From Escherichia coli (GTDB taxonomy: Bacteria > Pseudomonadota > Gammaproteobacteria > Enterobacterales > Enterobacteriaceae), in NCBI RefSeq assembly GCF_003334255.1, contig NZ_QOWU01000008.1: a stretch of DNA of 64,000 nt; one strand, written 5' to 3'. The notes beneath the pieces were generated by a model. The model worked only from the letters and a program-made list of their open reading frames with translations. It was not told where the DNA came from and ran no database searches. A program made the position numbers and the translations under genes. Positions within the stretch are counted from its first letter, which is position 1. Every line of letters starts with the position of its first letter. Below are positions 15,457-64,000 of the stretch, one piece after another.

Positions 15457-15921
15457 ATGGAAAAGAAATTACCCCGCATTAAAGCGCTGCTAACCCCCGG
15501 CGAAGTGGCGAAACGCAGCGGTGTGGCGGTATCGGCGCTGCATTTCTATGAAAGTAAAGGGTTGATTACCAGTATCCGTAACAGCGGCAATCAGCGGCGA
15601 TATAAACGTGATGTGTTGCGATATGTTGCAATTATCAAAATTGCTCAGCGTATTGGCATTCCGCTGGCGACCATTGGTGAAGCGTTTGGCGTGTTGCCCG
15701 AAGGGCATACGTTAAGTGCGAAAGAGTGGAAACAGCTTTCGTCCCAATGGCGAGAAGAGTTGGATCGGCGCATTCATACCTTAGTGGCGCTGCGTGACGA
15801 ACTGGACGGATGTATTGGTTGTGGCTGCCTTTCGCGCAGTGATTGCCCGTTGCGTAACCCGGGCGACCGCTTAGGAGAAGAAGGTACCGGCGCACGCTTG
15901 CTGGAAGATGAACAAAACTAA
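15457..15921 (+). CDS. soxR: MerR-family redox sensor SoxR with [2Fe-2S] cluster (154 aa)
   Basis: MerR-type HTH N-terminus and C-terminal [12 protein letters not shown] cysteine cluster. Confidence 0.95.
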
Positions 15922-16054
15922 AGCGCCACAAGGGCGCTTTAGTTTGTTTTCCGGTCTTTGTCTTTCTCTCTATCCCGCTGGTACACAGGAGGGTTTCCCC
16001 CGACGTCAACACACCTCATTCGAGCACGTGGTGGAGGTTCCGGTTGGTGTTGAT
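15915..16054 (-). ncRNA. ryjA: candidate small RNA RyjA/SraL, convergent with soxR
   Basis: Placed from recollection that K-12 carries this sRNA just 3' of soxR on the opposite strand, sharing the terminator hairpin; not verifiable from sequence alone. Confidence 0.35.
15921..15950. terminator. hairpin at the soxR 3' end (AAAGCGCCacaaGGGCGCTTT), likely bidirectional
   Basis: Inverted repeat overlapping the soxR stop, followed by a T-rich tract. Confidence 0.7.
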
Positions 16055-23278: not shown

Positions 23279-23372
<94 letters not shown>

Positions 23373-33814: not shown

Positions 33815-34310
33815 TGTGAATGCCTGATGCGACGCTTGCCGCGTCTTATCAGGCCTACGCCAGACAGCGCAATAGCCTGATTTAGCGTGATTTTGTAGGT
33901 CGGATAAGGCGTTTATGCCGCATCCGACATCAACGCCTGATGCGACGCTTAACGCGTCTTATCAGGCCTACGCCAGACAGCGCAATAGCCTGATTTAGCG
34001 TGATTTTGTAGGTCGGATAAGGCGTTTACGCCGCATCCGACATCAACGCCTGCTGCGACGCTTGCCGCGTCTTATCAGGCCTACGCCAGACAGCGCAATA
34101 GCCTGATTTAGCGTGATTTTGTAGGTCGGATAAGGCGTTTATGCCGCATCCGACATCAACGCCTGATGCGACGCTTAACGCGTCTTATCAGGCCTACGCC
34201 AGACAGCGCAATAGCCTGATTTAGCGTGATTTTGTAGGTCGGATAAGGCGTTTACGCCGCATCCGACATCAATGCCTGATGCGACGCTTGCCGCGTCTTA
34301 TCAGGCCTAT
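33815..34310. repeat. REP/BIME cluster: about 4.5 tandem units of 113 bp, each holding two REP palindromes
   Basis: CGTCTTATCAGGCCTAC recurs at 33842, 33955, 34068, 34181 and 34294 (period 113 bp). Confidence 0.9.
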
Positions 34311-35094: not shown

Positions 35095-37242
35095 TTACGC
35101 CAGTGCCGCTTCGCGCAGGCGAGTTTTCAACTTGTTGTACTCGTCAATCACGTACTGCTCGGCGGCGCGCTGATCGGCGATCGGCTCGACGCGAACGGCG
35201 CAGTATTTGTACTCCGGCGTTTTCGTAATCGGGCTTAAGTTTTCGGTAACCAGCTCGTTACAGGCACCAATCCACCACTGGTAGGTCATGTAAATCGCCC
35301 CTTTGTTCGGACGATCGCTGACCTGCGCACGGGTGATAATTTTGCCTTTACGCGAGTGCACCCAAACCAATGCCTCATCTTCAATACCCAGACGTTTGGC
35401 GTCTTCGGTATTGATTTGTGCGTAGCCAGGTTCATCAGCCAGCGCCGCCAGTGCCGCACAGTTACCGGTCATCGAACGGCAAGAGTAGTGACCAACTTCA
35501 CGCACCGTTGACAGTACCATCGGGTACTCGTCGGTGAGTTTGTCGATTGGCGCTACCCAGTCGCAGGTGAAGAACTGCGCCAGACCGTTCGGGGTATCAA
35601 ACTTCTCTTTAAACAGATAAGAAGTCCCCTGATCGGCATCTGAAGTATCGCGGCAAGGCCACTGAATGAAGCCCAGTTCGCCCATTTTCTCGTAAGTCGC
35701 ACCGTAGAAATCCGGGCACAGATGACGCAACTCATCCCAGATCTCCTGGGTGTTGTTGTAGTGCATCGGATAACCCATACGGGTGGCGATTTCACTGATG
35801 ATTTGCCAGTCCGTTTTCAGATCCCATTTCGGTTCAACCGCCTTGAAGAAACGCTGGAAGCCACGGTCAGCCGCAGTAAACACGCCTTCATGCTCGCCCC
35901 ACGACGTTGACGGTAAAATAACATCCGCCGCCGACGCGGTTTTGGTCATAAAGATGTCCTGAACGATAACCAGTTCCAGATCTTCAAAGGCTTTACGTAC
36001 TGCCGACAGCTCCGCGTCAGTTTGTAGCGGATCTTCGCCCATAATGTACGCGGCACGCACTTCGCCATGCGCTGCGCGGTGCGGCAGCTCGCTGATGCGA
36101 TAGCCGGTATGCGCTGGCAGGCTTTCCACGCCCCAGGCTTTGGCGAATTTCTCGCGGTTAGCCGGATCTTTCACGTACTGGTATCCCGGATACGTATCCG
36201 GCAGCGCGCCCATATCGCAGGCACCCTGAACGTTGTTCTGACCACGAACCGGGTTAACACCCGCATGCGGCTTACCGAGGTTACCGGTCAGCATCGCGAG
36301 GCTGGTCAGAGAACGCACGGTTTCCACGCCCTGGTAGAACTGGGTTACACCCATGCCCCACAGGATGGCGGCGCTTTTCGCCTGGGCATACATCCGTGCC
36401 GCCTGACGAATCTCACTGGCGCTGACGCCGGTGATATCTTCAACCGACTCCGGCGTGTAGCCTTCAACGATTTTACGATACTCTTCAAAGCCTTCTGTAC
36501 GTGAAGCGACGAACGCTTTGTCGTACAGATTTTCTTCAATAATGACATGGCCCATCGCATTCAACAGCGCGATGTTCGAGCCGTTTTTCAGTGCAATGTG
36601 CATGTCAGCAATGCGCGCGGTTTCAATTTTGCGCGGATCGCAGACGATAATTTTCGCCCCGTTACGTTTAGCGTTAATTACGTGATTCGCCACGATTGGG
36701 TGGGAATCCGCCGGGTTGTACCCGAAAACGAACACTAAATCGGTATTATCAATTTCGTTAATAGCATTGCTCATTGCGCCATTACCGACCGATTGGTGCA
36801 GACCTGCAACCGATGGGCCGTGTCAGACACGAGCGCAGCAGTCAACGTTATTGGTACCAATAACGGCGCGCGCAAATTTTTGCATTACATAGTTGGTTTC
36901 GTTACCCGTACCACGCGAGGAGCCGGTCGTCTGGATGGCATCCGGACCGTACTTCTCTTTGATGGCGCTCAGGCGCTCGGCAACGTAATTCAGTGCCTCA
37001 TCCCAGGAAACAGGTTCGAGTTTGCCGCCACGCTGGCGACGGATCATGGGGGTTTTCAGGCGCGGGGTCAGGATCTGGGTATCGTTAATGAAGTCCCAGC
37101 CATAATAACCCTTCAGACACAGGGTACCCTGGTTGGTTTTCCCCTGCGCTGCCTCCGCCCGGACGATTTTGCCGTTATCGACGACCAGGTTGATTTTGCA
37201 ACCTGATGCGCAATAGGGGCAAACCGTGACGACTTTTTTCAT
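35095..37242 (-). CDS. fdhF: formate dehydrogenase H, selenocysteine-containing molybdoenzyme (715 aa)
   Basis: Track ORFs 36823..37242 and 35095..36774 are one reading frame joined by TGA at 36823..36825; N-terminal Fe-S motif CPYCASGC; 2148 nt is 716 codons. Confidence 0.95.
36780..36822 (-). promoter_or_regulatory. SECIS recoding element directly 3' of the fdhF UGA codon (extent approximate)
   Basis: Bacterial SECIS lies immediately downstream of the Sec codon (established); the stretch after TGA is GC-rich and hairpin-prone. Confidence 0.65.
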
Positions 37243-50867: not shown

Positions 50868-51225
50868 CACGTTCTCTTGTCCTTGAATTGAAGACGCCAC
50901 TATATCACCACAGCAAGAACAGAAAAGATGCTGGCGACTTCACAAAAAAATAAAATTTATAAAGTTTATTTTATTGTGAACAATGGCGAGTGGCTTAAAA
51001 TTTTATTTCATTTAATTAGTTTAAAAACATGATGTTATTTGTTTTTCTGGTTTTTTAGATGATAGATGTTGCTGGATGGTGAGTGTCTTTAACGCTATTG
51101 CGCTGTCAGATGTAACTCTGTAAAACAGATCAGGAAGGCGTAATTCATCGATTTTGGGTGTTTTTAATTCATTAACATCACAAATGTTTTTTGATTGTGA
51201 AGTTTTGCACGGACGGGGAAGATGA

Positions 51226-51675
51226 ATGAAAAAGATTGCATTTGGCTGTGATCATGTCGGTTTCATTTTAAAACATGAAATAGTGGCACATTTAGTTGAG
51301 CGTGGCGTTGAAGTGATTGATAAAGGAACCTGGTCGTCAGAGCGTACTGATTATCCACATTACGCCAGTCAAGTCGCACTGGCTGTTGCTGGCGGAGAGG
51401 TTGATGGCGGGATTTTGATTTGTGGTACTGGCGTCGGTATTTCGATAGCGGCGAACAAGTTTGCCGGAATTCGCGCGGTCGTCTGTAGCGAACCTTATTC
51501 CGCGCAACTTTCGCGGCAGCATAACGACACCAACGTGCTGGCTTTTGGTTCACGAGTGGTTGGCCTCGAACTGGCAAAAATGATTGTGGATGCGTGGCTG
51601 GGCGCACAGTACGAAGGCGGTCGTCATCAACAACGCGTGGAGGCGATTACGGCAATAGAGCAGCGGAGAAATTGA
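51226..51675 (+). CDS. rpiB: ribose-5-phosphate isomerase B / allose-6-phosphate isomerase (149 aa)
   Basis: RpiB/LacAB family (MKKIAFGCDHVGF..., CGTGVGISIAANK); divergent from rpiR. Confidence 0.92.
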   Translation: MKKIAFGCDHVGFILKHEIVAHLVERGVEVIDKGTWSSERTDYPHYASQVALAVAGGEVDGGILICGTGVGISIAANKFAGIRAVVCSEPYSAQLSRQHNDTNVLAFGSRVVGLELAKMIVDAWLGAQYEGGRHQQRVEAITAIEQRRN

Positions 51676-51743
51676 GATTCATCCACTACTTGCATGGATG
51701 AGTAATGATTAATGTGGATAGAGTTTCTTTTTGAGGCTGGCTA

Positions 51744-52073
51744 ATGAAACGCTTTCCGCTATTTCTTTTATTCACCCTGCTCACGCTGTCCACCGTTCCG
51801 GCCCAGGCCGATATTATCGACGACACCATTGGCAATATTCAGCAGGCGATTAATGACGCTTATAACCCTGACCGTGGGCGAGACTATGAAGATTCGCGCG
51901 ACGACGGCTGGCAGCGTGAAGTGAGCGACGATCGGCGCAGGCAATATGACGACCGCCGCCGCCAGTTTGAAGATCGCCGCAGGCAGCTGGACGATCGCCA
52001 GCGCCAGCTTGATCAGGAGCGTCGGCAACTGGAGGATGAAGAGCGGAGAATGGAAGATGAGTATGGGCGATGA
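51744..52073 (+). CDS. yjdP: small secreted protein with charged DDRRRQ-type repeats (109 aa)
   Basis: Signal peptide MKRFPLFLLFTLLTLSTVPAQA then repeats (DDRRRQYDDRRRQFEDRRRQLDDRQRQLDQERRQLEDEERR). Confidence 0.6.
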   Translation: MKRFPLFLLFTLLTLSTVPAQADIIDDTIGNIQQAINDAYNPDRGRDYEDSRDDGWQREVSDDRRRQYDDRRRQFEDRRRQLDDRQRQLDQERRQLEDEERRMEDEYGR

Positions 52074-52094
52074 GGTTGGGTATGGAGCAGGCAT

Positions 52095-52197
52095 CGCCCC
52101 TCACCCCAATGGGGAGAGGGAGAAAACGAGCGCAATATTCAATATCGAGCACAATCGGTCCCCCCGCCCCTCTGGGGAGAGGGTTAGGGTGAGGGGG
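52095..52197. repeat. GC-rich inverted-repeat intergenic element (CCCCTCACCCC / GGGGAGAGGG / GGGTGAGGGGG)
   Basis: Two copies of GGGGAGAGGG flanked by complementary CCCTCACCCC and GGGTGAGGGG arms between yjdP and phnP; resembles a box-C-type enterobacterial repeat, family not verified. Confidence 0.5.
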
Positions 52198-52219
52198 CCA
52201 GCGCGCACATTCCCTCTCA

Positions 52220-52978
52220 TCACGCCACCCCAATCTCCATCCCATCAAACCCCACCTCAAACCCTGACGGTAGTGCGTTTTCCATCAGCCACGCATCAAA
52301 CTGGTGGCTGATATGGGTCAGAATCACCCGTGGCGAGCGGATAACCTGATTCAGCGCAAGCACGGTATTTAAATCACAGTGATTACGCGGTGCATCCGCG
52401 CGCGGCGGGTGACTGCAATCCATCACCATTACCTGCGGCTGATTATTGCGTAAAAATTTCAGCGTTTTTTCCGGCAAGCCTGCGGTGTCAGACAGCCACG
52501 CCACCCGGCTGTGTGCCGTTTCCAGCAGATAACCGAAGGTCAGTTTTGAGTGGTTGAGCGGCAGGGGCGTGACCTGTAACCCCTGCAAATCAAACACCAC
52601 AAACGGTTCCACCGTGTGGCTGAAATCAAGCAGGCCCGGATGTTTAAACAGATCGTCGCAGCCCTGTTCATCCGGCGGGCCGTAAACCGGGATCGGATCG
52701 CCAACGCCCCAGCGCAGCGGAAACAGCCCCTGGACGTGATCCATATGATAATGCGTCAGCAAAAACTGCTGGAACGATCCGGGCGACCAGCGATCGGCGA
52801 GATCGTGCAGCCCGGCGTCGATCAGGGTGATTGCGTCGTTAAACTTCACTACGCCGCTGCACGGTTGGCGGCGATACTGCGGCGAGCGCCGCGCTCTGGC
52901 GCAGGCCGCACACTCGCAGCCCCATGCCGGAACGCCCTGTGCGCCGCCGGTGCCGGTGAGCGTGAGGGTCAGGCTCAT
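52220..52978 (-). CDS. phnP: phosphoribosyl 1,2-cyclic phosphate phosphodiesterase, MBL fold (252 aa)
   Basis: Metallo-beta-lactamase motif HYHMDH; last gene of the phn operon. Confidence 0.9.
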
Positions 52979-61120: not shown

Positions 61121-61208
61121 TGTAGGCCGGATAAGGTGCTTGCACCGCATCCGGCATCAACGCCTGCACATTGTCGGATGCGACGCCGGGGCGTCTTATC
61201 CGACCTAC
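61121..61208. repeat. pair of REP elements between phnD and phnE
   Basis: GTAGGCCGGATAAGGTGCTTGCACCGCATCCGGC and GTCGGATGCGACGCCGGGGCGTCTTATCCGACCTAC. Confidence 0.8.

Positions 61209-63649: not shown

Positions 63650-64000
<351 letters not shown>

Follow-up and report, generated by a model that had tools for sequence, protein, structure and literature searches.

The locus analyzed here lies on the E. coli chromosome, within a 64-kb window (the whole stretch of DNA that was examined), where a short open reading frame (ORF), yjdP, sits between rpiB and phnP. Conserved motifs precede its start codon, and two related hairpin elements follow its stop codon. The features, in window coordinates, are:

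51226..51675, plus strand: rpiB, the upstream neighbor of yjdP (RefSeq annotation)
51673..51686, plus strand: RcsB-box-like element TGAGATTCATCCAC, overlapping the rpiB stop codon (TGA, 51673-51675)
51710..51715, plus strand: predicted -10 hexamer TAATGT (TANNNT), with T51710, A51711, and T51715 invariant in 8 genera
51722..51722, plus strand: predicted transcription start site (TSS; A), giving a 22-nt 5' UTR, placed by analogy with the 6-nt distance from the -10 to the 5' end of rprA
51733..51736, plus strand: Shine-Dalgarno (SD) GAGG, read from the sequence, 7 nt before the yjdP ATG; G51733 invariant in 8 genera
51744..52073, plus strand: yjdP ORF, ATG start, 109 codons (109 aa)
51744..51809, plus strand: predicted signal peptide, residues 1-22, MKRFPLFLLFTLLTLSTVPAQA, with n, h, and c regions and A-x-A
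51810..51863, plus strand: conserved, putatively amphipathic N-terminal helix, residues 23-40 of mature YjdP, DIIDDTIGNIQQAINDAY
51864..51926, plus strand: acidic and variable linker, residues 41-61, with the lowest conservation within mature YjdP
51927..52052, plus strand: six heptad repeats, residues 62-103, with a 21-nt tandem period
52053..52073, plus strand: C-terminal tail EDEYGR and stop codon
52097..52120, plus strand: first, short C-rich/G-rich hairpin copy CCCCTCACCCCAATGGGGAGAGGG, a predicted hairpin 83% identical to 52160-52183
52160..52196, plus strand: full HPG1 element, the C-rich arm plus GGGGAGAGGGTTAGGGTGAGGGG, with the exact HPG1 core
52220..52978, minus strand: phnP, the downstream and convergent neighbor of yjdP (RefSeq annotation)

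RefSeq labels the ORF “yjdP: DDRRRQL repeat protein YjdP,” and the NCBIfam equivalog NF041443 (“DDRRRQL repeat protein YjdP”) matched it at 147.9 bits (E 8.9e-44; curated cutoff, 90) in a full-length alignment, with YjdP residues 1-103 aligned to all 101 profile positions. The annotation and the match confirm the name that had been given to the ORF in the sequence-only reading (made from the letters of the window before any database was consulted), just as the RefSeq coordinates of rpiB and phnP confirm its placement between rpiB and the end of the phn operon. A Pfam family, PF28054:YjdP, was also present in precomputed annotations. The sequence matched the RefSeq yjdP of K-12 and many other E. 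coli strains at 99.7 to 100% identity, and the allele in the window is the common 109-aa form. yjdP is already a known, catalogued gene and family, and both the gene and its repeat architecture have already been curated. No enzymatic domain had been recognized in the translated sequence, and none emerged here: a Pfam-A scan returned nothing at E<=0.001 (the version scanned apparently predates PF28054), a PHROGs search found nothing, and PADLOC gave a single weak match only (PbeC, E=0.019), with no meaningful domain. The JGI names “RuvC/YqgF nuclease,” “Skp chaperone,” and “colicin uptake protein” were rejected as low-complexity or coiled-coil artefacts. In the literature mentioning yjdP, we found no study devoted to the protein and no proteomic evidence, and the earlier description of a small, highly charged, and poorly understood repeat protein holds. 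Rice papers also use the term yjdP and are evidently unrelated.

Conservation of the ORF in related genomes, on which the sequence-only reading had hung its proposal, was clear: yjdP was carried by 5405 of 5426 complete E. coli genomes and was kept in other genera of the Enterobacteriaceae. A search of 1.84 billion representatives put the wider family at 53 clusters (E<=0.001), a count in which fragments, some metagenomic sequences, and a handful of weak matches to long repetitive proteins are included. Members with a named source were restricted to Enterobacteriaceae (Escherichia, Shigella, Citrobacter, Klebsiella, Cronobacter, Buttiauxella, and Entomohabitans), the Escherichia species including E. 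coli, E. albertii, and E. fergusonii. The start codon, SD, and signal peptide were conserved in 8 genera, and insertions and deletions preserved the frame in nearly all alleles. Compared with orthologues from E. albertii, E. fergusonii, and Citrobacter, the mature part of YjdP had a dN/dS of 0.02 to 0.08, with synonymous sites at or near saturation. These values, together with retention in 8 genera despite changes of both neighbors, show yjdP to be a real gene, namely, a genuine protein-coding core gene under strong purifying selection. The signal peptide was much freer than the mature part (dN/dS, 0.15 to 0.87), a contrast to be expected if YjdP is an exported protein.

The repeats of the D/E-D-R-R-R-Q type, previously put at “four or more,” proved to be six consecutive heptads that read, from residue 62, DDRRRQY, DDRRRQF, EDRRRQL, DDRQRQL, DQERRQL, and EDEERRM, of which three are exact (D/E)DRRRQ and three degenerate. 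At the DNA level, these appeared as a tandem repeat with a period of 21 nt (3.5 copies, 75% matches, TRF score 69) and as a 42-nt double unit (TRF score 103), with the 21-nt copies being 71 to 76% identical to the reference copy. The label “low-complexity region” was right in that the repeats are real, but it understated their regularity: the heptads form a strict array, their hydrophobic stripe is conserved, and their copy number is almost fixed. A length of 109 aa was common to almost all E. coli, E. fergusonii, and Citrobacter. Variation in repeat number, for which a homologue search had been proposed, exists but is rare: of the 5406 complete-genome records with a match, about 18 carried (at >=95% identity) a 102-aa allele with one heptad fewer, and E. 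albertii has a 123-aa form with two extra heptads from duplication of the 42-nt double unit. Most changes in the array removed one heptad or added two (-1 or +2), and a few alleles, all rare, were of odd length. The rarity of the 102-aa allele speaks against a hypervariable repeat, and the heptad array is length-constrained. In a large collection, the 102-aa allele was seen on >1000 contigs, which had suggested frequent variation.

The N terminus has the makings of the clear signal peptide claimed for it, with Sec-type n, h, and c regions and A-x-A before Asp23. The n-region is MKR, the hydrophobic core FPLFLLFTLLTLSTV has a Kyte-Doolittle mean of 2.38 over residues 6-16, and the c-region PAQA is followed by D, for a cleavage context of VPAQA↓D. 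Ala at -1 was invariant among the homologues aligned; position -3 was A, T, or V in the 11 homologues aligned there gap-free, and the other 2, shifted by one alignment column, had A-x-A after gap closure. By rule, we infer cleavage before Asp23 and Sec export to the periplasm. No Cys was present after the cleavage site or anywhere else in the protein, and there was no twin-arginine motif; a bacterial lipoprotein was rejected, as the lipobox Cys at +1 is absent. An unexpected finding added by this analysis was that, in some E. coli strains, 9-nt units expand the signal-peptide core to (LFT)3-6, giving alleles of 112, 118, and 121 aa. Aligned spans consistent with (LFT)n expansion occurred in 6 of 60 evenly sampled E. 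coli records (about a tenth), and three of these six were fetched and translated.

Mature YjdP, as predicted, is 87 aa (10.98 kDa, pI 4.6) with 55% charged residues, including 20 Arg and 28 Asp+Glu. The most conserved stretch of the protein, residues 23-40, was near-identical from E. coli to Klebsiella and carries hydrophobic residues (I25, I29, I32, I36, and A39/Y40) at 3-4 spacing; it may therefore form an amphipathic helix with a classical hydrophobic seam. AlphaFold2 predicted a helix at residues 18-40 with low confidence (pLDDT 55-67), no secondary structure at residues 41-53 (pLDDT about 51), and one uninterrupted helix over residues 54-108 (pLDDT 89-97), the latter of about 55 residues and ~8.25 nm. 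Within the long-helix segment, opposite charges at i/i+3 or i/i+4 formed 35 pairs, compared with 20.7 +/- 3.4 in shuffled segments, and none of 2000 shuffles reached 35, so the order of charges is not random. The segment also carries one hydrophobic residue per heptad in a conserved stripe (Y68, F75, L82, L89, L96, and M103), of which Y68, L89, and L96 were invariant across the homologues aligned.

When viewed against the properties of single alpha-helix (SAH) domains, YjdP had the salt-bridge pattern (35 pairs) and also a hydrophobic seam (the Y68-M103 stripe); when viewed against those of coiled coils, the heptad period was clear, the long helix had one hydrophobic position per heptad, and the N-terminal helix had 3-4 spacing. 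Because dense charge pairs are combined with one conserved hydrophobic residue per heptad, the modeled long helix is intermediate between a salt-bridge-stabilized SAH and a leucine-zipper-like coiled coil. SAH domains of the ER/K type are found in eukaryotic proteins and are Glu/Lys-based. YjdP resembles them in its very dense i to i+3/i+4 opposite-charge pairs and its predicted long, isolated helix, but it differs in having Asp/Arg/Gln instead of Glu/Lys and a conserved hydrophobic residue at every 7th position, and it would be bacterial and periplasmic. AlphaFold2 gave no confident model for a fused dimer, in which a Gly-Ser linker of 60 residues connected two mature copies (pTM 0.41; N-terminal helix pLDDT about 40). 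A sequence-profile search of the PDB gave only weak coiled-coil matches (M protein, GCN4 fusions, EibD, and Skp; E 0.017-0.6), which were discarded as noise, and Foldseek searches of the PDB with the monomer and fused-dimer models found nothing.

Only 68 nt separate rpiB from yjdP, and a scan of 51100-52400 found no terminator-like site in this gap. In all 8 genera, it was located at the edge of phn genes, represented by phnP, phnH, phnB, or a YjdM-family (PF03831) gene that we take to be phnA. The genes upstream varied (rpiB, a hybrid histidine kinase, an alkyl-sulfatase-like gene, a sodium-solute symporter, and others), as did those downstream (phnP, higBA, phnB, phnH, a chemoreceptor, and others). 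In O157, the hybrid kinase stands in place of rpiB, and at the E. fergusonii locus only phnB was seen nearby. Since its neighbors vary, yjdP is maintained on its own and not within either flanking operon.

The spacer between yjdP and phnP is 146 nt long and contains two related C-tract/G-tract hairpin elements. Positions 52174-52196 contain the exact HPG1 core GGGAGAGGGTTAGGGTGAGGG (dGGGAGAGGGTTAGGGTGAGGG); HPG1 is a hairpin/G-quadruplex intergenic repeat, and a copy between yjdP and phnP has been tabulated (Table 1 in Kaplan et al. 2016, PMC5100583). The “GC-rich palindromic repeat” that had been described after yjdP is real inasmuch as two C-rich/G-rich hairpin copies are present, but these are of the HPG1 type and not classical REP/BIME elements: Rfam naRNA4 (RF02564) had no match at 52074-52219 and ten elsewhere in the window. 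A reading of the hairpins as an intrinsic terminator was likewise rejected, as they have no U-tract and were not scored by a consensus scan, and the fold of 52070-52225 was not unusually stable (z = -1.23). The number of HPG1 copies varied by strain, with none in ST131-like strains (27-nt spacer), one in O157, and two in this window, and the element was absent from the other genera examined. HPG1, which we suspect to be identical with the older “Box C” repeat, does not belong to yjdP; it is a small, independent repeat that has come to lie between two convergent genes.

Upstream of the gene, an alignment across eight genera of the ~100 nt that precede the ATG revealed two invariant islands in otherwise unconserved DNA: TTGAGA(A/T)T..TC(C/T).C at 51672-51687 and T-A-N-N-N-T at 51710-51715. 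The first island contains a match to the RcsB box, TN(G/A)GAN4TC(T/C)NA, a consensus defined structurally for RcsB homodimers (PMC7913699). Positions 51673-51686 matched 7 of the 8 specified positions of that box, with the final A being C in all 10 yjdP loci. The core match was found 70-73 nt before the ATG in 10/10 loci (8 genera) despite the differing upstream gene; the core pattern had 9 occurrences on both strands of the 64-kb window. From the box to TANNNT, the distance was exactly 23 nt in each of the 10 loci, and the sequence of this 23-nt spacer was not conserved. The same layout is found at the rprA promoter (PrprA) of MG1655, which consists of the box, 23 nt, TACTAT, 6 nt, and the annotated RprA 5' end, here taken as the TSS (box at 524-537, -10 at 561-566, and TSS at 573 of the sequence used). 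The osmC-proximal box has TAGTCT at the same 23-nt spacing, and RcsB presumably acts there at osmCp1; the 23-nt geometry was not found at the bdm box and is therefore not universal among Rcs promoters. A generic sigma-70 promoter scan of 51100-52400 found no promoter, as expected because the -35 is poor. By analogy with PrprA, the RcsB box of the yjdP promoter would span about -50 to -37, followed by a poor -35 and by TANNNT as the -10. The conserved RcsB-box/TANNNT block is a finding added by this analysis.

The sequence-only reading had also named lack of expression as grounds for doubt, and on the transcriptome side, published RNA-seq both detected yjdP mRNA and showed its induction: upon treatment with a LolCDE inhibitor, yjdP rose from an FPKM of 10.6 to 100.6 and 112.3, i.e., 9.5- and 10.6-fold (PMC5105897). 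Genes co-induced with yjdP were osmB, bdm, ivy, wca, rcsA, yjbEF, cpxP, and spy; rpiB was not found in the main text or the supplementary parts covered (PMC5105897). The authors ascribed the response to Rcs, Cpx, and sigma-S jointly (PMC5105897), and therefore any of them could drive yjdP. In the portions of supplementary text covered from envelope-stress transcriptome papers, yjdP was not found. In the PRECISE i-modulon analysis, yjdP was grouped with rpiB in “Crp-2” and not with RcsAB, which suggests read-through from rpiB into yjdP in K-12 under non-stress conditions. Overexpression of CsiR repressed yjdP 3.5-fold, with a ChIP peak reported inside the gene (one dataset). In comparison with PrprA and osmCp1, yjdP shares the TNRGA-N4-TCY box 23 nt upstream of a TANNNT -10, as well as induction under Rcs-inducing envelope stress (PMC5105897), and differs in that the last position of its box is C, not A, and that the box is predicted from sequence. 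From the conserved box, the PrprA geometry, and the induction by the LolCDE inhibitor, we infer with good support that RcsB probably controls yjdP directly.

Taken together, the explanation that we favor, at a probability of roughly 60%, is that YjdP is an exported, non-enzymatic helical rod that is switched on by Rcs via its own promoter and acts by binding. RcsB, a response regulator of envelope stress, would act on that promoter as its direct activator, with the same geometry as at PrprA, and some read-through from rpiB may contribute in K-12. The cleavable Sec signal peptide would deliver a protein of roughly 11 kDa, probably all-helical, to the periplasm. There, the Ile-rich amphipathic N-terminal helix is a candidate oligomerization or docking module, and a short, acidic, presumably disordered linker would join it to a rigid charged helix of roughly 55 residues (about 8 nm) that the structural model builds from the six DDRRRQ-hydrophobic heptads. 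Dense intra-helical salt bridges between Asp/Glu and Arg would stabilize this long helix, which would expose one conserved hydrophobic residue per heptad. The most likely role for YjdP is that of a stress-induced periplasmic rod of fixed length that binds through charge and the hydrophobic stripe and performs no catalysis; its biochemical role is conjecture. A partner could be bound through the conserved amphipathic N-terminal helix and the charged, Leu-striped long helix, and YjdP might serve Rcs-directed envelope repair as a scaffold or in the manner of a chaperone. Spy and CpxP offer a partial precedent: with YjdP as predicted, they have in common small size, export, helical structure, high charge, and induction by envelope stress, and cpxP and spy were up in the same experiment. 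However, they share no sequence or profile similarity with YjdP, which had no match to the Pfam LTXXQ family even at E<=10, and they form a hairpin cradle, whereas YjdP is predicted to form one long straight helix and is net acidic.

Other explanations share parts of this evidence. It is hardly credible that yjdP is a chance or decaying low-complexity frame, or that the functional unit is the 21-nt repeat as DNA or RNA and not the protein. Long mirror ORFs do exist (51768..52094 on the minus strand and 51946..52311 on the plus strand in another frame), Pfam-A found no known domain in YjdP, and the CsiR ChIP peak was reported inside the gene, but the dN/dS of the mature part in the annotated frame, with its saturated synonymous sites, effectively refutes this reading, and the conserved start codon, SD, and signal peptide, the frame-preserving indels, and the existence of a curated family all argue against it as well. 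Service to the sugar-phosphate or phosphonate neighbors, with yjdP either the last gene of an rpiB-yjdP transcript (Crp/RpiR) or a phn accessory, e.g., an Arg-rich phosph(on)ate binder, is quite improbable. The shared Crp-2 i-modulon, the short distance from rpiB with no terminator-like site between, and the constant location at the edge of phn genes are consistent with such a service, but the gene upstream differs from locus to locus, a conserved promoter-like block of its own accompanies yjdP in every case, and the phn genes run convergently or on the other strand. E. fergusonii, moreover, retains yjdP with only phnB seen nearby, and induction under Lol inhibition is reported for yjdP but was not found for rpiB in the parts of that report covered.

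Two further alternatives concern the regulator and the mode of action. That CpxR or sigma-S drives the promoter, with the RcsB-box match a coincidence, is unlikely. The response to the Lol inhibitor, in which Rcs, Cpx, and sigma-S regulons are mixed, the failure of every yjdP locus to match the final base of the box consensus, and the effect on yjdP of CsiR, the repressor of the csiD operon, which is sigma-S-dependent, speak for it; the C at that last position, the grouping in Crp-2 and not RcsAB, the repression and ChIP peak seen with CsiR, and the empty generic promoter scan weigh in turn against the RcsB model itself. Set against these, no CpxR-type repeat (GTAAA-N5-GTAAA) was seen in the conserved block on inspection by eye, the conserved bases are exactly the TNRGA and TCY half-sites, and the spacing from the box to the -10 equals that of PrprA to the nucleotide in 10/10 loci. 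It is doubtful, in turn, that YjdP is a periplasmic spacer or ruler, that is, a coiled-coil rod whose length is critical, as that of Lpp is for periplasmic width, with heptad indels tuning the distance. The Braun lipoprotein, Lpp, is a periplasmic heptad coiled coil, and YjdP resembles it as a short, presumably periplasmic heptad-repeat helical rod of conserved length. The strict heptad periodicity and the predicted helix of 55 residues (about 8.25 nm), the nearly invariant copy number across genera, the predominance of whole-heptad changes over a few rare odd-length alleles, and the N-terminal Ile residues, spaced as in oligomerizing zippers, are all compatible with such a device. But YjdP lacks the lipobox Cys and the C-terminal Lys by which Lpp attaches to peptidoglycan, and neither end has an anchoring motif; its single core hydrophobic residue per heptad would make for a weak coiled-coil core, the fused-dimer model showed no confident packing, and its low basal expression (FPKM about 10) is unlike that of a structural protein. 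We therefore retain the Rcs-switched rod that acts by binding as the preferred explanation. In its fullest form, which we put forward only tentatively as a possibility, YjdP would be an unrecognized direct member of the RcsB regulon and a salt-bridge-stiffened periplasmic helix of fixed length (an exported analogue of SAH rods), its Ile-rich helix would dock or oligomerize on an envelope partner, and, in some lineages of E. coli, the (LFT)n expansions would adjust its export or its retention in the membrane.

YjdP is one of the remaining core E. coli genes without an assigned function. The promoter model presented here (box at 51673-51686, -10 at 51710-51715, and TSS near 51722) makes its regulation directly testable, and the structural model offers a predicted 8-nm charged helix together with a conserved putative docking helix. 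If the favored explanation is true, YjdP would join the Rcs envelope-repair programme as a conserved component in the periplasm; if the fuller joint reading of the rod is true as well, YjdP would establish “charged rod” factors, periplasmic and induced by stress, as a new class.

Not all E. coli strains share the same YjdP signal peptide. In some, the hydrophobic core contains a 9-nt tandem expansion encoding Leu-Phe-Thr (MKRFPLFLLFTLFTLFTLFTLFTLFTVPAQA), at the equivalent of window 51765-51790, and the proteins reach 112, 118, and 121 aa. The expanded alleles lie as follows:

L010:401-757, L011:401-766, and L012:401-739, yjdP of E. coli strains AVS0283, AVS0967, and MNCRE44

Aligned spans compatible with the expansion occurred in ~10% of evenly sampled complete genomes. 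So extended a core might slow cleavage of YjdP or anchor it in the membrane.

Two long ORFs overlap yjdP:

51768-52094, minus strand, mirror ORF of 108 aa
51946-52311, plus strand, alternative-frame ORF of 121 aa

Both are by-products of GC-rich repeat sequence poor in stops, and selection analysis backed the annotated frame only. Elsewhere in the window, matches to the REP/BIME-derived naRNA4 (RF02564) were clustered, tandem arrays among them, and two further RNA elements were found:

23292-23362, plus strand, naRNA4
33898-34307, plus strand, four-copy tandem naRNA4 array
61125-61205, plus strand, naRNA4
63681-63957, minus strand, three-copy tandem naRNA4 array
15914-16054, minus strand, sraL Hfq-binding sRNA (153 bits)
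36776-36830, minus strand, SECIS_2 selenocysteine insertion element, presumably within fdhF (87 bits)

Both sraL and SECIS_2 are to be expected in this E. coli region.

Comparison of the yjdP-phnP spacer (window 52074-52219) with loci L010 to L013 revealed that strains differ in copy number of the HPG1-type hairpin/G-quadruplex element: none in the 27-nt spacer of three strains, one in the 76 nt of O157:H7 (L013), and two in the 146 nt of the window. With this pattern, the element resembles a small repeat that is mobile or recombines. In Citrobacter europaeus, an inserted toxin-antitoxin pair (higB-like toxin, HTH antitoxin) separates yjdP from phnP (L001:4487-5157), a further sign that this intergenic site is an insertion hotspot.

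The other flank also varies. Directly 5' of yjdP, EHEC O157 (L013) and Citrobacter (L001 and L002) have, in place of the als-rpiB locus, a gene for a hybrid sensor kinase/response regulator; the EHEC gene belongs to the OI167 island, together with lmvK/lmvR (PMC10128022). A hybrid sensor kinase likewise lies upstream of yjdP in Entomohabitans (L009). The yjdP promoter block, with its RcsB-box-like element and predicted -10, marks the conserved right-hand boundary of this variable region.
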